Of a stretch of DNA of 64,000 nt, positions 4,420-18,983 are shown one piece after another. A program made the translations under genes and the position numbers. This DNA is from Escherichia coli. GTDB lineage: Bacteria; Pseudomonadota; Gammaproteobacteria; Enterobacterales; Enterobacteriaceae. The notes below the pieces were generated by a model. The model was not told the DNA's origin. It saw nothing but the letters and a program-made list of their open reading frames with translations, and searched no databases. Numbering within the stretch: the stretch's first letter is position 1; every line of letters starts with the position of its first letter. The stretch is from assembly GCF_044324785.1 (NCBI RefSeq), contig NZ_CP172127.1; one strand, 5' to 3'.

Positions 4420-5235
4420 ATGAGCGTAAAAGTTATCGTCACAGACATGGACGGTACTTTTCTTAACGACGCCAAAACGTACAACCAACCACGTTTTATG
4501 GCGCAATATCAGGAACTGAAAAAGCGCGGCATTAAGTTCGTTGTCGCCAGCGGTAATCAGTATTACCAGCTTATTTCGTTCTTTCCTGAGCTAAAGGATG
4601 AGATCTCTTTTGTCGCGGAAAACGGCGCACTGGTTTACGAACATGGCAAGCAACTGTTCCACGGCGAACTGACCCGACATGAATCGCGGATTGTTATTGG
4701 CGAGTTGCTAAAAGATAAGCAACTCAATTTTGTCGCCTGCGGTCTGCAAAGTGCATATGTCAGCGAAAACGCCCCCGAAGCATTCGTCGCACTGATGGCA
4801 AAACACTACCATCGCCTGAAACCTGTAAAAGATTATCAGGAGATTGACGACGTACTGTTCAAGTTTTCGCTCAACCTGCCGGATGAACAAATCCCGTTAG
4901 TGATCGACAAACTGCACGTAGCGCTCGACGGCATTATGAAGCCGGTTACCAGTGGTTTTGGCTTTATCGACCTGATTATTCCTGGCCTGCATAAAGCGAA
5001 TGGTATTTCGCGGTTACTGAAACGCTGGGATCTGTCACCGCAAAATGTGGTAGCGATTGGCGACAGCGGTAACGATGCGGAGATGCTGAAAATGGCGCGT
5101 TATTCCTTTGCGATGGGCAATGCTGCGGAAAACATTAAACAAATCGCCCGTTACGCTACCGATGATAATAATCATGAAGGCGCGCTGAATGTGATTCAGG
5201 CGGTGCTGGATAACACATCCCCTTTTAACAGCTGA
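4420..5235 (+). CDS. ybiV: HAD-family sugar phosphatase
   Basis: Internal ATG at 4420 of ORF 4189..5235; N-terminal HAD motif VTDMDGTFL; 271 aa. Confidence 0.9.
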
Positions 5236-5386: not shown

Positions 5387-6652
5387 ATGGCTTCTACTTT
5401 TACCAGCGACACATTGCCTGCCGATCACAAAGCAGCTATCCGTCAGATGAAGCACGCGCTGCGGGCGCAGCTTGGCGACGTCCAGCAGATCTTTAATCAG
5501 CTAAGCGATGACATTGCCACGCGAGTGGCTGAAATCAACGCACTCAAAGCACAGGGCGATGCCGTCTGGCCGGTGCTGTCTTATGCCGATATCAAAGCAG
5601 GTCATGTTACTGCAGAGCAGCGCGAACAAATTAAACGTCGCGGTTGTGCGGTGATAAAAGGCCATTTCCCCCGCGAACAAGCGCTAGGCTGGGATCAGTC
5701 GATGCTGGACTATCTGGACCGCAACCGCTTTGACGAGGTCTACAAAGGCCCCGGCGATAATTTCTTCGGGACACTCAGCGCTTCACGTCCCGAGATTTAC
5801 CCCATCTACTGGTCGCAGGCGCAAATGCAGGCCCGCCAGAGTGAAGAAATGGCGAATGTGCAGTCGTTTCTCAATCGTCTGTGGACATTTGAAAGTGATG
5901 GAAAGCAATGGTTTAACCCGGATGTGAGCGTCATCTACCCTGACCGTATCCGCCGCCGTCCGCCCGGAACGACCTCCAAAGGTCTTGGAGCGCATACCGA
6001 CTCCGGGGCGCTGGAACGCTGGCTGCTTCCAGCGTATCAGCACGTTTTCGCCAACGTCTTTAATGGCAATCTGGCGAAATACGATCCCTGGCATGCGGCA
6101 CATCGTACGGAAGTTGAAGAGTACACGGTGGACAACACCACCAAATGTTCCGTGTTTCGGACATTCCAGGGCTGGACAGCGCTCTCTGATATGCTGCCTG
6201 GTCAGGGGTTGCTGCACGTCGTGCCCATTCCTGAAGCCATGGCGTACGTACTGTTACGTCCGCTGCTTGATGATGTGCCGGAGGATGAACTGTGCGGCGT
6301 AGCGCCCGGAAGAGTGTTGCCGGTATCAGAGCAATGGCATCCACTGTTAATTGAGGCGTTAACCAGCATTCCAAAACTCGAGGCCGGAGACTCCGTCTGG
6401 TGGCACTGCGACGTCATCCATTCCGTTGCCCCCGTTGAAAATCAACAGGGTTGGGGCAACGTGATGTACATTCCTGCGGCACCGATGTGCGAGAAAAATC
6501 TTGCCTACGCGCACAAGGTGAAGGCCGCACTGGAAAAAGGCGCATCGCCGGGCGACTTCCCGCGCGAGGACTATGAAACAAACTGGGAAGGACGCTTTAC
6601 GCTTGCCGACCTCAACATTCACGGTAAGCGAGCGTTGGGAATCGACAGCTGA
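5387..6652 (+). CDS. ybiU: DUF1479-family protein YbiU
   Basis: ORF 5381..6652; ATG at 5387 has GAGG upstream; 421 aa recognised as YbiU. Confidence 0.85.
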   Translation: MASTFTSDTLPADHKAAIRQMKHALRAQLGDVQQIFNQLSDDIATRVAEINALKAQGDAVWPVLSYADIKAGHVTAEQREQIKRRGCAVIKGHFPREQALGWDQSMLDYLDRNRFDEVYKGPGDNFFGTLSASRPEIYPIYWSQAQMQARQSEEMANVQSFLNRLWTFESDGKQWFNPDVSVIYPDRIRRRPPGTTSKGLGAHTDSGALERWLLPAYQHVFANVFNGNLAKYDPWHAAHRTEVEEYTVDNTTKCSVFRTFQGWTALSDMLPGQGLLHVVPIPEAMAYVLLRPLLDDVPEDELCGVAPGRVLPVSEQWHPLLIEALTSIPKLEAGDSVWWHCDVIHSVAPVENQQGWGNVMYIPAAPMCEKNLAYAHKVKAALEKGASPGDFPREDYETNWEGRFTLADLNIHGKRALGIDS

Positions 6653-7722
6653 GTGTCGTACAGCCCTTCCCGTTCCACGGCGGTGTTCCCTTTTCCTGGG
6701 CGAACCCGCCGCACTGACTCCCGCACCGCCAATCGTCCGTGCAGCAGCAGCGAGCCCACCGGAGCATCCGGGCGAATCAGCCGCTGTTGCAACATTTGCA
6801 CCGCTTCATTGCCTAGCTCATCGCGTGGCACATGCACAGCCGTCAGGGGAACATCCTCGATTGCCGCAAGGTTAAAGCCGTCGATACTCATCACCGAGAC
6901 ATCCTGTGGTACGCGCAGACCACGACGATGTAGCGCATTTACCGTTCCCGCCGCCATAAAATCCCCGCCGACCAGAAACGCCGTCGGCAACGTCTTGCCA
7001 TTGGCGGCATCCAGCCACGCTCCGACCTTTTCTTCCGCTTCTTTAGCGCTAAAACTGCTGATATTCAGCAAATGACGGTCATGGTGAAAGGCCAGATTAT
7101 GCTGACGCCATGATTCTTTAATCCCTGCAAACCGCTGCTCCATAGTGTAGCGGCGCAGGCACATCACATTCATCACCTCCCGGTGACCCATTTCAAACAG
7201 ATAGCGGGCGGCGAACGCGCCAATTAACCGATGGTCCGGCGCAATCGCCGGGAGGCGCATTCGTTCATCACGGCAGTTGATCAGCACACAAGGCTTAGCG
7301 AGATCGGCGGCCAGATCATGGATGTGCGGATCGTCAATCCCCAGCAGGATCGCCGCCTGCGTATCTGCTTCATTCATCCGCGAGAGAAATAGCGCGGGAT
7401 CGCTGTCAAACTCCTCCAGCGCGCAGTAACGCAGCCGCACTTCATGCGGCGATAACGCTTTGCTGATGCTCTGGATCACACGGTAATAAAAGATATCAGA
7501 TCGTTGGTCAAAAGCGCGTTGCGGCGCGAAAATAATCAGGTTGTTCAGCAACATACGACCTGCTGCCATGCCATCCATCACGCCCAACTCACGCGCGCAG
7601 GCCAGCACCTGTTCGCGAGCGCGTGCACTGGTATTCGCTTTGCCAGCCAGCACCCGCGAAACCGTACTCGGCGATAGCCCGGTACGTGCGGCGATATCGG
7701 CGATTTTCAGCTTCTTGTCCAT
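6619..7722 (-). CDS. LacI-family transcriptional regulator (accessory locus)
   Basis: ORF 6619..7800 (-); likely start MDKKLKIADIAARTGLSPSTVSRVL (HTH at N-terminus) at 7722; periplasmic-binding-protein-like core; 3-prime end overlaps ybiU by 34 bp. Confidence 0.8.
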   Translation of the reverse strand: MDKKLKIADIAARTGLSPSTVSRVLAGKANTSARAREQVLACARELGVMDGMAAGRMLLNNLIIFAPQRAFDQRSDIFYYRVIQSISKALSPHEVRLRYCALEEFDSDPALFLSRMNEADTQAAILLGIDDPHIHDLAADLAKPCVLINCRDERMRLPAIAPDHRLIGAFAARYLFEMGHREVMNVMCLRRYTMEQRFAGIKESWRQHNLAFHHDRHLLNISSFSAKEAEEKVGAWLDAANGKTLPTAFLVGGDFMAAGTVNALHRRGLRVPQDVSVMSIDGFNLAAIEDVPLTAVHVPRDELGNEAVQMLQQRLIRPDAPVGSLLLHGRLAVRESVRRVRPGKGNTAVEREGLYDTQLSIPNARLP

Positions 7723-8016
7723 TTTGTGATCTGCCTCTAATTCGGAAATGACAGAATTTTCATGAGCAAAAAAGCCCATTCTGTCTGGCATTAAATCCAT
7801 TTCAGTAATGTATATCAGTCACTCATGGAAAAACGTGCACAAAACCCGCTTTCTTTCGCTTTTAGGGTCTCTTACTGTGAATTGGTAGAACAACTTCCAT
7901 ACAAAAATAATGGAAAAACGAACAACAAAGACTTTATTTATCAAAAAGTTAAAAGTGGTGTGACAACTCCATTCTGACGTTGCCGCACAAACCCTATACC
8001 ATTCTGTGGAGTGCAT

Positions 8017-9318
8017 ATGAGTCAGGGTATCAATAACGATATGACTGCCAGTAAACCGCGCCATATCGTCAAAAATCTGCGTTGGTGGATACTGGTCCTT
8101 TTTTTGCTCGGTGTTACTGTCAACTACATCACGCGTAACTCGCTGGGTATTCTCGCCCCCGAACTGAAAAGCAGCCTGGGGATTACCACCGAACAATATT
8201 CCTGGATTGTAGGTGCTTTCCAGCTCGCCTATACCCTATTCCAACCGTTGTGCGGATGGCTGATTGACGTCATTGGCCTCAAACTGGGCTTTATGATCTG
8301 CGCGGGACTGTGGGCACTGGCCTGTCTGATGCATGCGGGGGCGGGAAACTGGGTACATCTGGCGCTGTTGCGCTTCTTTATGGGCGGTGCGGAAGCCGCA
8401 GCAACCCCAGCAAACGCCAAAACCATCGGTGAATGGTTTCCAAAATCAGAACGCCCGATCGCCGCAGGCTGGGCAGGCGTCGGTTTTTCCATCGGTGCCA
8501 TGCTGGCCCCACCGATTATCTATTTTGCCCACGCTTCATTCGGCTGGCAGGGTGCATTTATGTTCACTGGCATCCTGGCGATGCTGTGGGTCGTGCTGTG
8601 GTGGGCGTTCTATCACAGCCCGGATAAGCATCCTAACCTCAGCAAAGCCGAGCTGGACTTTATTCGCCAGGATAACGAAGCGCCCCCGGTCAAGTTACCC
8701 TTTCTGACCGCACTGAAAACCGTGGGCAAAAATAAACGCTTTTACGGTATCGCTATCCCGGCCTTTATGGCAGAACCGGCGTGGGCGGTGATGAGTTTCT
8801 GGGTTCCGCTATACCTGTCCAAAACCTATGGCATGGACCTGAAGCAGATCGCATTATTCGCCTGGTTGCCGTTCCTCGCCGCTGATCTTGGCAGTATTGC
8901 CAGCGGCTATCTGACCAAACTTTACACCCGCCTGTTTGGGCTGAGTCGTGTGAACTCCGTTGTCGCATCATCGGTCAGTGGCGCATTCCTGATGGTTTCG
9001 CTGGCGGTGATGGCCTTTACCAATAACCCGTATATCGCCATCGTCCTTATCTCCATCGGCGGCTTCGGTCACCAGATCATCTCCTGCATGCTAAGCGCAC
9101 TGGTGGTGGAATCCTTCGACAAAGGTCAGATGGCCACTGTTAACGGCATGCGCGGTTCTGCCGCGTGGATCGCAAGTTTCCTGTTCTCCCTGATAATCGG
9201 GGTTACCGCAGACAAAATCGGCTTTAACCCCCTGTTTATCGCCATGGGCTTCTTTGACCTGATTGGCGCTTTCTTCCTGGTCACCTTTATTGCTGAACGT
9301 CGCGCAAAACGCGCCTGA
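8017..9318 (+). CDS. MFS transporter, anion:cation symporter family, ExuT (hexuronate transporter)-like
   Basis: ORF 8011..9318; ATG at 8017 has GGAG 5 nt upstream; N-terminal region aligns by eye with ExuT (LRWW..TRN...QYSWI...GEWFPKSER...IGAMLAPPI). Confidence 0.8.
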   Translation: MSQGINNDMTASKPRHIVKNLRWWILVLFLLGVTVNYITRNSLGILAPELKSSLGITTEQYSWIVGAFQLAYTLFQPLCGWLIDVIGLKLGFMICAGLWALACLMHAGAGNWVHLALLRFFMGGAEAAATPANAKTIGEWFPKSERPIAAGWAGVGFSIGAMLAPPIIYFAHASFGWQGAFMFTGILAMLWVVLWWAFYHSPDKHPNLSKAELDFIRQDNEAPPVKLPFLTALKTVGKNKRFYGIAIPAFMAEPAWAVMSFWVPLYLSKTYGMDLKQIALFAWLPFLAADLGSIASGYLTKLYTRLFGLSRVNSVVASSVSGAFLMVSLAVMAFTNNPYIAIVLISIGGFGHQIISCMLSALVVESFDKGQMATVNGMRGSAAWIASFLFSLIIGVTADKIGFNPLFIAMGFFDLIGAFFLVTFIAERRAKRA

Positions 9319-9332
9319 GAGTGGATGTAAAC

Positions 9333-11696
9333 ATGAAAACGCTGAAAAACTGGACCCTGCACAAACAGTCTGCCCACCACGTTGAACTGCTGGTCGATGG
9401 CCAGCATATCCTGTGCCTGTACGTGCTGGAAGAAAATCTGTTCCGCGTGCTGTTAAAACGCAAAGGCGAGCTGGCGCTGGATCGCACCTGGAGCATTGCT
9501 CCGGCGCAGGATGTGCCATGGGAAGGGCGCAGCCGCGAAGATCTCAGCGGCTTTAGCCTGCCCGCGTGGACATTGATCCAGCACGACGACACCGTGGTTA
9601 TCGCCACCGAGTCACTGCGTGTCACCGTTCACCAGCCGCTGTGGCTGGAGTGGCACTATCGTAACAACGAAGGCGAATGGCTGCCGTTGGTGAATGACCG
9701 CCCGACCAGCGCTTATCTGCTGAATGCCCACGGCGATGGCGTGGCACACTATCAGAGCCGTCGTAAAGATGAACGCTTTTATGGCCTCGGAGATAAAGCC
9801 GGCGACCTGCAACGCAACGGTAAACGTTACGAGATGCGTAACCTCGACGCGATGGGCTACAACGCCGTTAGTACTGACCCGCTGTACAAACACATTCCAT
9901 TCACCATCACCCGCCGCGATGACATTAGCTTCGGCCTGTTTTATGACAACCTCAGCAGCTGCTGGCTGGATCTGGGCAACGAGATCGACAACTACCACAC
10001 CGCCTATCGCCGCTGGCAGGCGGAAGCGGGTGATATCGACTACTACCTGTTTACCGGCGAACGCGTACTTGATATCACCAAAGCCTTCGTACGCCTGACC
10101 GGAAAAACCCTGTTCGGACCGAAATGGAGCCTGGGCTACAGCGGTTCAACTATGCACTACACCGATGCGCCGGACGCACAAAATCAGTTGATGAACTTTA
10201 TCCGCCTGTGTGAAGAACATGCAATTCCCTGCGATTCGTTCCAGCTCTCTTCCGGTTATACCTCAATTAACGGCAAACGCTATGTGTTCAACTGGAACTA
10301 CGACAAAGTGCCGCAGCCGAAAGTGATGAGCCAGGCATTTCACAATGCTGGTTTGCACCTGGCCGCCAATATCAAGCCGTGCCTGTTGCAGGATCACCCA
10401 CGCTATAACGAAGTGGCAGAAAGAGGACTGTTCATCCGTGATTCAGAAACAGATGAACCAGAACGTTCCAGCTTCTGGGATGACGAAGGTTCTAACCTCG
10501 ACTTTACTAATCCGCAGACCATCCAGTGGTGGCAGGAAGGCGTGACCACACAGCTTCTGGAGATGGGTATCGACTCCACCTGGAACGACAACAACGAATT
10601 CGAAGTATGGGACGGTGAAGCACGCTGTCACGGCTTTGGTCAGACGATCGCGATCAAACATATTCGCCCAGTGATGCCACTGCTGATGATGCGAGCCTCG
10701 ATGGAAGCCCAGCAGCGTTTCGCTCCGGAAAAACGTCCGTACTTGATCTCCCGCTCCGGCTGCGCGGGAATGCAGCGCTACGTGCAGACCTGGAGTGGCG
10801 ATAACCGCACTAGCTGGGACACTCTGCGCTACAACACCCGCATGGGTCTGGGGATGAGCCTCTCCGGGTTGTATAACCTCGGTCACGACGTCGGCGGTTT
10901 CTCCGGTGATAAACCGGACCCGGAACTGTTTGTACGCTGGGTACAAAACGGCGTGATGCATCCGCGCTTTACGATTCACTCATGGAACGATGACCATACC
11001 GTAAACGAACCGTGGATGTATCCGGGCGTCACTCCGGCGATCCGCAGCGCTATTGAGTTGCGCTATCGCCTGCTGCCCTACTTTTATACCCTGATGTGGC
11101 AGGCATACGCCGATGATGAACCAATGCTACGTCCGACTTTCCTTGACCACGAGCACGACGTTCAGACTTTTGAAGAGTGTGATGACTTCCTGCTTGGTCG
11201 CGATATTTTGGTTGCCAGCGTCGTAGAGCAAGGCGAGCGCCAGCGCCGTGTATGGCTGCCAGATAACGAAACTGGCTGGTACGATTTCTACAACGGCGAA
11301 TGGTTCAGTGGCGGTCAGTGGATCACCCTCGACGCACCGCTGGAGAAACTGCCGCTGATGGTGCGTGCCGGGGCTGGTCTACCGCTCAGCAAACGCATCA
11401 CCTATGTGAGCGCAGAACAAGACGATACCCGCGAACTGAAACTGTTCCCGCTGAAAGGTGTGGGCACAACGTCCGGCCTGCTGTTTGAAGACGATGGCGA
11501 AAGCTGGGGCTACCAAACTGGTAATGCGCTTTGGGTGGAATGGGAAATGGTTTGCGATGGGGCGACCATCAACCTGAAAGTCAACGCGCGCGGGGATTAT
11601 CGTCCTGCATGGAGTGCACTGAAAGTGTCATTACCATTGGAAGAAAAACGCACGCTGCTGGTCAATGGTGTTGAAGGGAGTGAATGGATGCGTTAA
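9333..11696 (+). CDS. glycoside hydrolase family 31 (alpha-glycosidase), specificity unknown
   Basis: ORF 9321..11696 (GTG at 9321 or ATG at 9333); GH31 motifs GIDSTWNDNNE (nucleophile region) and RSGCAGMQRYVQTWSGDNRTSW (acid/base region). Confidence 0.8.
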   Translation: MKTLKNWTLHKQSAHHVELLVDGQHILCLYVLEENLFRVLLKRKGELALDRTWSIAPAQDVPWEGRSREDLSGFSLPAWTLIQHDDTVVIATESLRVTVHQPLWLEWHYRNNEGEWLPLVNDRPTSAYLLNAHGDGVAHYQSRRKDERFYGLGDKAGDLQRNGKRYEMRNLDAMGYNAVSTDPLYKHIPFTITRRDDISFGLFYDNLSSCWLDLGNEIDNYHTAYRRWQAEAGDIDYYLFTGERVLDITKAFVRLTGKTLFGPKWSLGYSGSTMHYTDAPDAQNQLMNFIRLCEEHAIPCDSFQLSSGYTSINGKRYVFNWNYDKVPQPKVMSQAFHNAGLHLAANIKPCLLQDHPRYNEVAERGLFIRDSETDEPERSSFWDDEGSNLDFTNPQTIQWWQEGVTTQLLEMGIDSTWNDNNEFEVWDGEARCHGFGQTIAIKHIRPVMPLLMMRASMEAQQRFAPEKRPYLISRSGCAGMQRYVQTWSGDNRTSWDTLRYNTRMGLGMSLSGLYNLGHDVGGFSGDKPDPELFVRWVQNGVMHPRFTIHSWNDDHTVNEPWMYPGVTPAIRSAIELRYRLLPYFYTLMWQAYADDEPMLRPTFLDHEHDVQTFEECDDFLLGRDILVASVVEQGERQRRVWLPDNETGWYDFYNGEWFSGGQWITLDAPLEKLPLMVRAGAGLPLSKRITYVSAEQDDTRELKLFPLKGVGTTSGLLFEDDGESWGYQTGNALWVEWEMVCDGATINLKVNARGDYRPAWSALKVSLPLEEKRTLLVNGVEGSEWMR

Positions 11697-11875: not shown

Positions 11876-13471
11876 TTAACCGTCGATCCCTTTACTACGC
11901 AGGTAATCTTCGTAATTACCGCTAAAGTCAATAACGCGTTCCGGGGTGATTTCCAGAATGCGGGTCGCCAGGGAGCTTACGAACTCACGGTCGTGTGAAA
12001 CAAAGATCAGCGTGCCCTGATACAGTTCCAGCGCCATGTTCAGCGACTCGATGGATTCCATATCCAGGTGGTTGGTCGGTTCGTCCATGATCAGAATGTT
12101 CGGCTTCTGCATCATTAACTTACCAAACAGCATCCGCCCTTTTTCCCCACCGGAAAGCACTTTCGCTGGTTTTTTGATGTCGTCCTGGCTGAACAGCAAA
12201 CGACCGAGAATGCTGCGTACCGCCTGCTCGTCATCGCCTTCCTGCTTCCACTGGCTCATCCATTCGAACACGGTCAGATCATTTTCAAACTCATATTCGT
12301 GGTCCTGAGCATAGTAACCAATGCGCGCGTTTTCAGACCATTTTACGGTGCCGCTGTCCGGTTGCAGATCGCCCACCAGCGTTTTCAGCAGCGTTGATTT
12401 ACCGACGCCGTTGGTACCCAGTACCGCAAGTTTTTCACCGACCTCCAGCAGCAGGTTGAGATTTTTAAACAGTGGACCGTTATCAAACCCTTTGGTCAGA
12501 CCTTCCACTTCCAGCGCGTTACGGAACAGTTTCTTATCCTGTTCAAAACGGATGAACGGGTTCTGACGGCTGGAGGCTTTCACCTCTTCCAGTTTGATTT
12601 TATCAATCTGGCGCGCGCGCGAAGTTGCCTGGCGAGATTTCGAGGCGTTGGCGCTAAAGCGGCTAACGAAAGATTGCAGCTCAGCAATCTGCGCTTTCTT
12701 CTTGGCGTTATCAGCCAGCAGACGTTCACGCGCCTGGGTCGCCGCCGTCATGTACTCATCGTAGTTGCCCGGATAAACGCGCAGCTCGCCGTAATCCAGA
12801 TCCGCCATATGGGTACAAACCATGTTAAGGAAGTGACGGTCGTGCGAGATGATGATCATGGTGCTGTCACGCTCGTTCAGCACCTGTTCCAGCCAACGAA
12901 TGGTGTCGATGTCGAGGTTGTTGGTCGGTTCGTCGAGCAGGAGAATGTCTGGATCAGCAAAAAGCGCCTGTGCCAGCAGCACACGCAGCTTCCAGCCAGG
13001 AGCAACTTCACTCATCGGGCCGTAGTGCTGTTCCACTGGAATTCCCACGCCAAGCAACAATTCACCGGCGCGAGCTTCCGCAGAGTAACCGTCCATTTCG
13101 CCGTATTTCACTTCCAGATCGGCCACTTTATAGCCGTCTTCTTCACTCATTTCCGGCAAAGCATAGATGCGGTCACGCTCCTGCTTCACTTCCCACAACT
13201 CTTTATGCCCCATGATCACCGTATCCAGCACAGTGAACTCTTCAAAGGCAAACTGATCCTGACGCAGCTTACCAATGCGCTCGTTGGGATCGAGGGAAAC
13301 GTTACCCAACGTCGGCTCTAAGTCGCCGCCGAGGATCTTCATAAAGGTGGATTTACCACTACCGTTCGCGCCAATCAGGCCGTAACGGTTGCCGCCGCCA
13401 AATTTGACGGAAATGTTTTCAAACAACGGCTTACTGCCGAACTGCATGGTGACGTTACTGGAAACTAACAC
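11876..13471 (-). CDS. ybiT: ABC-F family ATPase (tandem ABC domains) YbiT
   Basis: 531 aa; two Walker A motifs ([18 protein letters not shown]) and ABC signature motifs. Confidence 0.9.
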
Positions 13472-18467: not shown

Positions 18468-18983
18468 TTAGAAGCGGTAACCAACACCGGCAATCCAGGT
18501 GCCTACGTCAACGCTACGAATACGGCTCTGCTCGTAAGAGAAGTCCAGAGCAACGTTTTCCATCGGGTTGAACTGCAGACCAGCACCGTAGGAGAAACCG
18601 TAGTCGCTGGTGTCGTGTTTGTAGGTCGGGTATTCAGTGGTCTGGAATTTACCATAACCCACACCCACTACACCGTAGATGCTTGCCCAGTCGTTAATGC
18701 GGTAAGCCGGACCAGCAGTGATGCCGTAGTACTGGTTTTTGTTGTAGTCACCAGAGCTTGCAGTACGGCTTTTCTCGGTGTAAGTGAAAGAACCGATCAC
18801 ACCCAGCGGGCTGTTGTCTTCTTCATAGCGGTATTTCAGGTTGAAACCGCCCATTTTGTTCATTTGGCCCTGAGCGTCGCTCTGTGCGTAACCGCCAGTT
18901 ACGGTAGAAGTCGCAGCTACGGAAGTACCTGCGGTGAAAGCCAGAACTGCGGCCAGTGCTGAAAGACATGCAATTTTTTTCAT
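18468..18983 (-). CDS. ompX: outer membrane protein OmpX
   Basis: Start MKKIACLS at 18983 (171 aa); beta-barrel ending in terminal F. Confidence 0.9.
   Translation of the reverse strand: MKKIACLSALAAVLAFTAGTSVAATSTVTGGYAQSDAQGQMNKMGGFNLKYRYEEDNSPLGVIGSFTYTEKSRTASSGDYNKNQYYGITAGPAYRINDWASIYGVVGVGYGKFQTTEYPTYKHDTSDYGFSYGAGLQFNPMENVALDFSYEQSRIRSVDVGTWIAGVGYRF

Follow-up and report, generated by a model that had tools for sequence, protein, structure and literature searches.

A likely dually repressed control region with LacI-type and ExuR-type sites between lfaR and a transporter/GH31 operon of Escherichia coli, and short repeats that probably arose by coincidence

The 294 bp at positions 7723-8016 of the 64,000-nucleotide Escherichia coli sequence analysed here (the window) are most probably an ordinary, dually repressed control region of a sugar-acid operon. 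As was originally predicted, the region is a divergent one, separating a LacI-family regulator gene from a transporter/GH31 operon. According to the comparison with orthologous loci, the best explanation, which is considered likely, is that this lfaR-transporter/GH31 control region carries conserved LacI-type sites (O1 and O2) together with conserved ExuR-type sites (G1 and G2), and that the short motifs flagged earlier within it are coincidental.

The cassette consists of 3 genes, with lfaR divergent from the MFS transporter gene, which is followed by the GH31 glycosidase gene. The regulator gene (6619..7722, minus strand, 367 aa, start ATG at 7722) is an ortholog of the RegPrecise regulator 'LfaR'. 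Its product has Pfam LacI, Peripla_BP_1 and Peripla_BP_3 matches and, over the full length, shares 78% identity with Ent638_1314, which is entered in RegPrecise as LfaR. The RefSeq models of this regulator differ, with 367 aa in strain B1 and 386 aa, starting at 7779, in strain S10. The Met at 7722 is the alignment start in 79/79 regulator orthologs, and the N-terminus of the 386-aa model is probably 19 residues too long. On the plus strand, the MFS transporter gene (8017..9318; Pfam MFS_1) encodes a protein of the anion:cation symporter type, in the D-galactonate/hexuronate transporter family. The top NCBIfam match of this transporter is TIGR00893, the D-galactonate transporter subfamily, at 266 bits, under the 395-bit cutoff of that model. 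The Shine-Dalgarno sequence GGAG of the transporter gene (8008..8011, plus strand) is located in a conserved TGTGGAG block, 5 nt before the ATG at 8017. The third gene (9333..11696, plus strand, RefSeq start) encodes a glycoside hydrolase family 31 alpha-glycosidase with Pfam GH31 domains, and its closest solved structures are alpha-glucosidase II and a Flavobacterium GH31.

The cassette at ybiU/ybiT is ancestral to the Enterobacteriaceae and has been lost from most E. coli; it is no acquired island. About 11% of E. coli retain it, and K-12 is without it. Across 24 genera, the neighbours of the cassette are ybiT, ybiU, ybiV, ybiW and ybiY, or moeB and moeA, and no GntR-family gene was found beside it in any of them.

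For comparison, 78 orthologous intergenic regions between the regulator and transporter genes were collected from about 25 genera of enterobacteria, giving 79 loci with the present one and a non-redundant set of 63. Two LacI-type sites of 16 bp can be recognized as candidate LfaR operators. O1 (7748..7763) is the palindrome ATGACAGAATTTTCAT, with the consensus ATGAAAAAATTTTCAT, and scores 18.5 bits with a symmetrised matrix. O2 (7825..7840) is ATGGAAAAACGTGCAC, with the consensus ATGARAA-NNN-TTGCAY, and scores 11.2 bits in E. coli. Their joint consensus is ATGAAAA-WW-TTTKCAY. In 79/79 loci, O1 has its start 26 bp upstream of the regulator ATG and lies 77-78 bp from O2. Both sites were matched in 78/79 loci, at offsets of 26 and 103-104 from the regulator ATG. 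Over 957 kb of loci, the O matrix produced 165 matches of at least 10 bits; 157 of these are O1 or O2, and the other 8 all score 11.7 bits or less. Serratia, Pectobacterium and Yersinia were left out of the O matrix and, with their different chromosomal contexts, represent an independent test. The sole matches above 11 bits in their 10-kb loci are found at offsets 26 and 103-104, with scores of 15-25 bits. A further O-type match, at 18968 of the window, is the ompX start codon (ATGAAAAAAATTGCAT) and was discarded as a coincidence.

Palindromic pairs over the 63 orthologs average 6.0/8 for O1 and 4.3/8 for O2. In E. coli the values are 5/8 and 3/8, the O2 of this species being degenerate; in Buttiauxella and Cedecea, O2 is a near-perfect palindrome. 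Sites of the LacI family are mostly even palindromes of 16-22 bp, and a central CG is typical. With 16 bp, O1 and O2 fall within this size range, but the central CG pair is missing from both, the centre being AA, AT or TT. Among 1,303 LacI-family regulators, a non-CG centre is recorded for 78 in total (49 with a different centre and 29 with a degenerate one), and therefore the centre of O1/O2 is no bar to membership. O2 is situated 177-192 bp from the transporter ATG, beyond the usual range of 30-140 bp. It is the architecture of the sites, their co-occurrence with the regulator gene and the site count that point to O1 and O2 as candidate LfaR operators.

A different assignment, by which O1 and O2 would be sites of a global factor such as CRP, with TGTGATC at 7725-7731 in the same system, appears unlikely. 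Both sites show the 5-6-5 CRP layout, and O2 of the Enterobacter group, TGAGA-N6-GCACA, resembles a CRP site with 8/10 core matches. Additionally, hexuronate genes are dependent on catabolite control, and TTTGTGATCT has the sequence of a perfect CRP half-site. The invariant TTTGTGATC (7723..7731), which adjoins the regulator start codon on its upstream side, carries about 2 bits per position at 8/9 positions in the 63 non-redundant orthologs; it is also found in Serratia, Pectobacterium and Yersinia, and may represent a CRP-like half-site or a translation initiation region. However, the second G of TGTGA is missing from O1 throughout, and the 'spacer' AAATTT of O1 is as well conserved as the arms. 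In the distant genera a TCACA half is lacking from both sites, whose sequence is ATGAAAAT-ATTTTCAW or has TTGCAA at its end. Moreover, the sites accompany the regulator gene in three different chromosomal contexts, and their offset from the regulator ATG does not change. CRP was rejected for O1, O2 and also G2, on account of the conserved 'spacer' and the lack of a conserved TCACA half.

Apart from the candidate LfaR operators, the region contains two predicted ExuR-type boxes of 19 bp each. G1 (7879..7897) is GAATTGGTAGAACAACTTC, with the core TGGT-AGA-ACAA, and scores 22.8 bits; G2 (7952..7970) is AAAGTGGTGTGACAACTCC, with the core TGGT-GTG-ACAA, and scores 23.6 bits. The consensus of the FadR subfamily is TKGT-N3-ACMA in an A/T-rich context, the N3 spacing being given for ExuR (PMC4494728). 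Both G1 and G2 match this palindrome. G1 is 54 bp from O2 in 66/69 loci, and G2 is identical to the K-12 uxaCA ExuR site AAATTGGTGTGATAACTTT at 15/19 positions. Although the G matrix was built solely from the G1/G2 ortholog sites of the cassette, it scored the published K-12 ExuR sites at 20.8 (uxaCA), 18.7 (exuT), 13.4 (exuR) and 20.9 bits (uxaB), and gave additional unlisted matches of 16.1 and 12.6 bits upstream of uxaB. The background of this matrix is about 5 independent matches of at least 13 bits per Mb. No match was obtained in the UxuR-type gntP-uxuA and uxuR regions. The boxes had first been likened to the UxuR box, AAATTGGTATACCAATTT. UxuR identity was rejected, and G1/G2 are classed as ExuR-type, since they have a GT-AC spacing of 3 instead of 2 and the uxuA and uxuR promoters are without a matrix match.

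ExuR sites upstream of this cassette have already been predicted in Enterobacter, Citrobacter and Klebsiella. Suvorova et al. 2015 (PMC4494728, supplementary file 2) listed such sites for Enterobacter sp. 638, C. koseri, K. pneumoniae, Serratia and Pectobacterium; the entries include Ent638_1313-1312/1314, CKO_02295-02297 and KPN_00852-00854, and second sites at this locus are given for Enterobacter sp. 638 and C. koseri. The G1 ortholog of the Enterobacter group is identical to the published Ent638_1313-1312 site, with an exact 21-mer match in six of the loci examined here. The boxes thus support placing the E. coli cassette in the hexuronate (ExuR) regulon, and exuR itself is carried by 5,420/5,426 E. 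coli genomes. Suvorova et al. had probably brought the cassette into this regulon in 2011. A full-text literature search for LfaR together with ExuR was without result.

The promoters of the region are less clearly marked. A conserved TAnnnT (TACTGT; 7873..7878, plus strand), in which T1, A2 and T6 carry about 2 bits each, is a putative -10 hexamer of the transporter/GH31 promoter. It abuts G1 and is the most consistent promoter-like position on the plus strand, scoring in 46% of the orthologs; no convincing -35 hexamer was seen alongside it. Consensus promoter scans over the orthologs returned no conserved -35/-10 pair, and the promoters discussed here are therefore putative.

From these elements, a mode of regulation can be proposed. 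The -10 hexamer of the transporter promoter would most likely be the TAnnnT at 7873-7878. With ExuR on G1, about -6 to +13 would be covered and RNA polymerase blocked, and G2, farther downstream in the leader, would reinforce this block, which hexuronates would lift. LfaR bound to O1 and O2 would repress its own promoter, located between or over both sites. Through O2, which would be about 50 bp ahead of the start site of the transporter operon, LfaR would repress that operon too, possibly with looping between O1 and O2. Repression by LfaR would last until a sugar effector binds.

The copies of CCATTCTG in the region, discussed below as coincidences, might alternatively happen to supply promoter hexamers in the Escherichia lineage without being operators, which is regarded as improbable. 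A plus-strand promoter close to the transporter gene would take CTGACG from the end of copy 2 and TACCAT from the start of copy 3, and the regulator gene, on the minus strand, would have CAGAAT of copy 1 for its -10 hexamer. CTGACG-17-TACCAT at 7974-8002, which includes bases of copies 2 and 3, is indeed the top sigma-70-like match of the E. coli region (9.06 bits), and CTGAAA-16-CAGAAT at 7805-7778 on the minus strand scores 5.93 bits. However, a start about 7 nt past 8002 would coincide with the GGAG at 8008 or immediately precede it, and almost no leader would be left. The pairs use different parts of the 8-mer, which leaves the repeat as such without a role, and promoters of this kind are not conserved. 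Moreover, a simple scan found the region no richer in promoter-like sites than its shuffles (1 against 0.9).

Exactly three copies of CCATTCTG are present in the intergenic region, as originally predicted. The first had been placed correctly at 7776, whereas the positions given for the other two, 7961 and 7992, were off by 8 and 7 bases. All three are on the plus strand. Copy 1 (CCATTCTGT, 7776..7783) is not conserved; it lies in the poorly conserved O1-O2 spacer, where it overlaps the alternative start codon annotated by RefSeq (7777-7779) as well as the inverted repeat's right arm. Copy 2 (CCATTCTGA, 7969..7976) is likewise not conserved, and shares its first two bases with the end of G2. 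In copy 3 (CCATTCTGT, 7999..8006), the 3' TCTG alone belongs to a semi-conserved stretch that precedes the Shine-Dalgarno sequence, and the copy as a whole is not conserved. A fourth, near-copy (CCATTTTGT, 7719-7727) runs across the regulator start codon. The 8-bp inverted repeat GACAGAAT/ATTCTGTC that had been reported is real, with its arms at 7750-7757 and 7778-7785.

Neither the triplicated 8-mer nor the inverted repeat exceeds chance. When the 294-bp region was subjected to 20,000 dinucleotide-preserving shuffles, some 8-mer occurred in at least 3 copies in 880 of them (4.4%), and a perfect 8-bp inverted repeat within 40 bp occurred in 4,315 (21.6%). A triplicated 8-mer is also seen in 9 of the 434 half-overlapping 294-bp segments of the 64-kb sequence. 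Over the whole window, CCATTCTG was observed 5 times against 1.88 expected, a count to which 5 of 100 shuffles get. The copies are not a duplication, because their flanks share nothing past 8-9 bases.

The possibility that the CCATTCTG(T/A) copies and the inverted repeat are operators of the LacI-family regulator, as was first proposed, is very remote. It can be said for this proposal that three exact copies stand in the 294 bp between the two genes, and that the left arm of the inverted repeat is within a conserved element. However, CCATTCTG is absent on either strand from 75 of the 78 orthologous intergenic regions, as well as from the three distant loci (Serratia, Pectobacterium, Yersinia), even though the regulators of the 78 loci are 70-92% identical and keep the HTH. 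Copies 2 and 3 vary even inside Escherichia. Copy 2 is mutated to CCAGTCTG in E. coli strain B1, and copy 3 to CTATTCTG in Escherichia sp. MOD1-EC7003, with the conserved elements of both intact; of 14 variable positions within Escherichia, 2 are found in the 24 bp of CCATTCTG copies and 0 in the 79 bp of conserved elements. Additionally, CCATTCTG is not self-complementary, and its copies are direct repeats with spacings of 193 and 30 bp, which do not fit a dimeric repressor of the LacI type. As to the inverted repeat, its left arm (7750-7757) falls inside the conserved O1 because O1 is itself palindromic, and its right arm (7778-7785) is located in unconserved spacer.

The comparison of motifs across homologous loci, which had been suggested together with the original prediction, has thus revealed the very lack of conservation in orthologs that was named there as refuting it. 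The prediction of operator elements holds in that the region does contain conserved operator-like palindromes; it does not hold for CCATTCTG, a direct repeat that is missing from most orthologs and polymorphic in Escherichia. In all likelihood, given their distribution among the loci, neither the CCATTCTG copies nor the inverted repeat are binding sites; they would have arisen by coincidence in the Escherichia lineage alone, within or beside unconstrained spacer. It is a useful negative that a triplicated 8-mer in an A/T-rich intergenic region can be within chance and no operator. That CCATTCTG is a lineage-specific site for some other factor is hardly to be expected.

It is also most improbable that the conserved blocks act as RNA, whether through a folded 5' leader, through sequestration of the Shine-Dalgarno sequence in a hairpin, or through a leader peptide. 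Lineage-specific hairpins do follow G2 in Kluyvera and Pseudocitrobacter, and in two loci (L007 and L008) a 13-bp helix pairs CUCUCCAC... to the Shine-Dalgarno region, with z about -4. Mini-ORFs also begin at the ATG of O1 and of O2, the latter in E. coli being a 50-codon ORF from the ATG at 7825 to a TGA at 7977, with its stop in CCATTCTG copy 2. However, RNAalifold found no consensus structure in two leader segments of the 63 orthologs on either strand. Folding of the leader from G2 to the ATG, compared with shuffles, gave a median z of 0.03 over the 63 orthologs and -0.11 in E. coli. With this median, a conserved hairpin and Shine-Dalgarno sequestration were dropped, and a leader hairpin that pairs with the Shine-Dalgarno sequence is confined to Pseudocitrobacter and a few other lineages. 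A search of Rfam on both strands with E up to 10 gave no match at any gathering score, only chance eukaryotic snoRNAs and a 13.8-bit speF fragment. Leader peptides were rejected, as no Shine-Dalgarno sequence is present and a stop follows after 5 codons in many genera, including the Citrobacter group. Furthermore, O1, O2, G1 and G2 are DNA palindromes that match known protein-binding motifs.

The cassette combines an anion-type MFS transporter with a cytoplasmic GH31 alpha-glycosidase, two ExuR boxes and a substrate-specific LacI-type repressor whose atypical, non-CG candidate operators keep a rigid spacing of 77 bp, which suggests a pathway for a hexuronate alpha-glycoside. A function of the cassette in the use of an alpha-glycoside that contains or releases hexuronate is a tentative reading, and somewhat doubtful. 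A substrate of this kind has been assigned neither to this cassette nor, to our knowledge, to any GH31 enzyme. The link to ExuR narrows the search for the substrate of the transporter and the GH31 enzyme to uronate-containing alpha-glycosides. Four conserved candidate repressor sites can now be added to the annotation of the LfaR cassette of E. coli.

One of the closest known systems is RegPrecise regulog 4996, 'LfaR' (LacI family, Enterobacteriales), from the supplement of Ravcheev et al. 2014 (PMC4052901), which is described under 'sugar utilization' with the effector listed as unknown and has 23 predicted sites in 6 genomes. Its members CKO_02295, KPN_00854, Spro_3600, ECA1966 and y3231 head the same regulator-MFS-GH31 cassette as the one described here. 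The E. coli copy is outside this regulog because the E. coli genome of that study was K-12, which is without the cassette.

The ExuR operators of uxaCA, exuT, exuR and uxaB share with G1/G2 the TKGT-N3-ACMA core and its AAA/TTT flanks. Unlike the ExuR operators of the hexuronate regulon, G1 and G2 are placed about 73 bp apart in one leader region, and the E. coli G2 has ACTCC as its right flank, a less symmetric sequence than the canonical ExuR flank ACTTT. O1 and O2, for their part, are 16-bp even palindromes with the half-site (A/T)TG(A/C)AAA, and resemble operators of the PurR/RbsR type, having the length and register of ACGCAAAC followed by GTTTGCGT. They differ from these in the centre, which is A/T in O1/O2 and CG in the PurR/RbsR type, and in an alignment by eye the LfaR hinge reads GMAAGRMLL, against SAVARSLKV in PurR. 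In their arrangement, O1 and O2 are comparable to gal OE/OI and lac O1/O3, as paired sites that keep a distance of about 7 helical turns (11 bp per turn) and would bracket a promoter. Like gal OE, O2 would precede the regulated start site by about 50-60 bp.

The three-gene cassette is located at 6619-11696 of the E. coli chromosomal window, flanked by ybiU and ybiT, and comprises a LacI-family regulator gene on the minus strand, a divergent MFS transporter gene and, downstream of the transporter, a GH31 glycosidase gene. It is carried by 577 of 5,426 complete E. coli genomes. Homology of K-12 to the window ends at 6645 and restarts at 11883 (boundaries 6645/6646 and 11882/11883), and about 250 bp with REP-like repeats stand in place of the cassette (4557-4796 of the comparison locus L089). 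The last ybiU codons differ between K-12 and the window; the regulator gene and ybiU are convergent, with a 34-bp overlap of their 3' ends (6619-6652). Across genera, ybiT is found on one side and ybiU, ybiV, ybiW, ybiY (or moeB, moeA) on the other. As these neighbours are common to many Enterobacteriaceae genera, the cassette appears to be ancestral at this position, with loss from most E. coli rather than gain by the carriers. The best family match of the transporter is the D-galactonate/hexuronate type of MFS carriers and the GH31 enzyme is closest to alpha-glucosidases, suggesting that the substrate may be a uronate-containing alpha-glycoside.

The original prediction assigned an operator or promoter role to three copies of the 8-mer CCATTCTG in the 294-bp control region between regulator and transporter (7723-8016). 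All three copies are present, at 7776-7783, 7969-7976 and 7999-8006; the original coordinates of the second and third were 8 and 7 bases lower than these. GACAGAAT/ATTCTGTC likewise occurs as an inverted repeat, with arms at 7750-7757 and 7778-7785. Among 20,000 dinucleotide-preserving shuffles of the region, some 8-mer occurred in three copies in 4.4% and a perfect 8-bp inverted repeat within 40 bp in 21.6%. A triplicated 8-mer was also seen in 9 of 434 real 294-bp windows of the 64-kb sequence, and the sequences flanking the three copies are unrelated to one another. Both features are real observations that lie within chance.

An ortholog scan with one genome per species yielded 80 loci whose regulators share 69-97% identity with the query. 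They represent, among others, Kluyvera, Citrobacter, Enterobacter, Klebsiella, Raoultella, Salmonella diarizonae, Kosakonia, Buttiauxella and Cedecea. The regulator-transporter-GH31 layout is common to all loci of sufficient length, and the regulator and transporter proteins both align from residue 1. On both strands, CCATTCTG is absent from 75 of the 78 usable orthologous intergenic regions (255-312 bp). Even within Escherichia, copy 2 is CCAGTCTG in E. coli strain B1 and copy 3 is CTATTCTG in Escherichia sp. MOD1-EC7003; of 14 intergenic positions variable in these two strains, 2 fall within the 24 bp of the copies and none within the 79 bp of conserved elements. Therefore, judged by comparison of homologous loci, CCATTCTG evolves like neutral spacer, and its copies are refuted as operators by the very condition, lack of conservation in orthologous loci, that the original prediction had set.

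Copy 1 lies within an unconstrained spacer and overlaps the start codon (7777-7779) of a 386-aa RefSeq model. RefSeq regulator starts differ by strain, 386 aa from 7779 (WP_000505359.1) or 367 aa from 7722 (WP_001571153.1); the start at 7722 is supported because orthologs, HTH position and RegPrecise entries agree. The first bases of copy 2 are the last two of G2, one of two 19-bp boxes, while copy 3 ends one base 5' of the Shine-Dalgarno sequence and only its TCTG part is semi-conserved. The left arm of the inverted repeat is inside O1, a 16-bp palindrome, and the right arm corresponds to copy 1. The best sigma-70-like match in the E. coli region, CTGACG-17-TACCAT (7974-8002), uses bases from copies 2 and 3; its start site would land on the Shine-Dalgarno sequence, and the match is not conserved. 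An ORF of 50 codons at 7825-7977 (MEKRAQNPLSFAF...), found only in E. coli and lacking a Shine-Dalgarno sequence, runs from an ATG inside the second palindrome, O2, to a TGA inside copy 2; its frame stops after 5 codons in the Citrobacter group and after 16 in Kluyvera and Enterobacter.

Alignment of 79 regions (63 after pairs at least 90% identical were dropped) displayed discrete conserved blocks with unconstrained sequence between them. These are an invariant 9-mer (7723-7731, TTTGTGATC), the O1 region (7746-7763, AAATGAAAAAATTTTCAT), the O2 region (7825-7843, ATGAAAAAACTTGCACAAAA), a putative -10 element (7873-7878, TAnnnT), parts of the boxes G1 (7889-7902, ACAACTTCCATAC) and G2 (7957-7968, GGTGTGACAACT), and the Shine-Dalgarno block (8004-8011, TGTGGAG). 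Directly 5' of the regulator ATG, TTTGTGATC is invariant or nearly so across the 79 orthologs, as well as in Serratia, Pectobacterium and Yersinia; no operator is conserved as strongly. The 9-mer contains GATC and forms a perfect CRP-like half-site, without a good partner half. In E. coli strain IH5 (NZ_CP168949.1, 5107035-5107310) the match to the control region begins only at window 7765 (query base 66), with no annotated regulator gene beneath it; this strain seems to lack, or to carry in disrupted form, the 5' end of the regulator gene, TTTGTGATC and O1.

O1 (7748-7763, ATGACAGAATTTTCAT) and O2 (7825-7840, ATGGAAAAACGTGCAC) are two versions of one imperfect palindrome, ATGAAAA-WW-TTTKCAY, and are almost identical to each other in Buttiauxella and Cedecea (e.g. 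ATGAAAATTTTTTCAC). With a symmetrised matrix, 957 kb of loci gave 165 matches scoring 10 bits or more; 157 represent two sites per locus and the remaining 8 are all at or below 11.7 bits. In 79 of 79 loci the distance from the regulator ATG to the start of O1 is 26 bp, and O2 follows at 77-78 bp. As an independent test, a published table supplied the regulators of Serratia, Pectobacterium and Yersinia, and their loci were fetched; the cassette occurs in all three, each time in a different chromosomal context, the sole matches above 11 bits per 10-kb locus lie at offsets 26 and 103-104 (15-25 bits), and TTTGTGATC is kept, with CCATTCTG not found. RegPrecise regulog 4996 'LfaR' ('sugar utilization', effector unknown, 23 sites in 6 genomes) includes Ent638_1314, with which the regulator shares 78% identity. 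We infer that O1 and O2 are candidate LfaR operators. The strongest match outside the locus (19.6 bits, ATGCAATTTTTTTCAT, 18968-18983) was rejected as a coincidence, being the ompX start codon region (ATGAAAAAAATTGCAT, MKKIAC, minus strand); genes of proteins starting Met-Lys-Lys mimic the motif.

The blocks around ACAACT form a direct repeat of a 19-bp element, G1 (7879-7897, GAATTGGTAGAACAACTTC) and G2 (7952-7970, AAAGTGGTGTGACAACTCC), each an imperfect palindrome. Each matches the FadR-subfamily consensus (boxes TKGT and ACMA) with the 3-nt spacing of ExuR, the hexuronate repressor, UxuR spacing being 2 nt (Suvorova et al. 2015, PMC4494728). A matrix made solely from cassette G1 and G2 orthologs was applied to K-12, with a background of about five independent matches of at least 13 bits per megabase. 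It matched the uxaC-exuT intergenic region (20.8 and 18.7 bits) and the upstream regions of exuR (13.4 bits) and uxaB (20.9, 16.1 and 12.6 bits); the 20.8, 18.7, 13.4 and 20.9-bit matches coincide exactly with the ExuR sites given for b3092-3091, b3093, b3094 and b1521 (PMC4494728). ExuR sites are already tabulated for the cassette orthologs Ent638_1313-1312, 1314, CKO_02295-02297, KPN_00852-00854, Spro_3598-3600 and ECA1966-1968 (PMC4494728), and six Enterobacter-group loci have a G1 identical to the published Ent638 sequence TGAACTTGTCACACAACTTCC. G1 and G2 are therefore classed as ExuR-type boxes. A UxuR-type reading (the UxuR site of the uxuR promoter is AAATTGGTATACCAATTT) was rejected on the spacing and on the lack of any match of at least 12 bits in the K-12 gntP-uxuA and uxuR intergenic regions. 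At the G1 position, Yersinia and Pectobacterium carry UxuR-like 2-nt GT-AC boxes (TTGGTGAACCAA, TTGGTAAACCAA), versus 3-nt ExuR-type spacing in Enterobacteriaceae. An ExuR-like match, CGAGCGGTCTGACATCTTT (13-15 bits), recurs about 216 nt inside the regulator coding sequence of 36 orthologs (e.g. L043 6216) and is absent from that of E. coli; it probably reflects a single coincidence maintained through orthology. Nearly all E. coli genomes (5,420 of 5,426) carry exuR, and membership of the operon in the hexuronate regulon is a known, published prediction for orthologs.

Together, O1, 77 bp, O2, 54 bp and G1 form a rigid module, in which TAnnnT, directly 5' of G1, is the sole well conserved promoter-like feature. 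With a start site near 7885, G1 would span about -6 to +13, permitting steric repression by ExuR, G2 would lie at about +68 to +86 and the O2 centre near -52. The LfaR promoter, whose candidates vary between genera, would overlap the two palindromes or lie in the interval separating them. Release from ExuR would come from hexuronates, and release from LfaR from its own effector. Structured RNA, leader peptides, CRP as the O1/O2 binder and a possible GntR gene adjoining the cassette were examined and set aside. In two Pseudocitrobacter loci (L007, L008), the leader from G2 to the transporter ATG contains a 13-bp helix between CUCUCCACGGAGUU and the Shine-Dalgarno region (z about -4), which looks like a lineage-specific sequestering structure; such a helix is absent from the E. 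coli leader (z -0.11).

The region is read as a putative, ordinary dual-repressor control region, with ExuR sites and regulator family already catalogued for orthologs in other enterobacteria. By analogy with known systems, LfaR on both O1 and O2 could loop out its own promoter, 77 bp being about 7 turns if the in-vivo helical repeat is taken as roughly 11 bp, and LfaR at O2 could likewise interfere with the transporter promoter, in the manner of GalR at OE. LacI-family operators are even palindromes of 16-22 bp, usually with a central CG. O1 and O2 resemble them in architecture but lack that CG; 78 of 1,303 members of the family are documented to deviate in this way.
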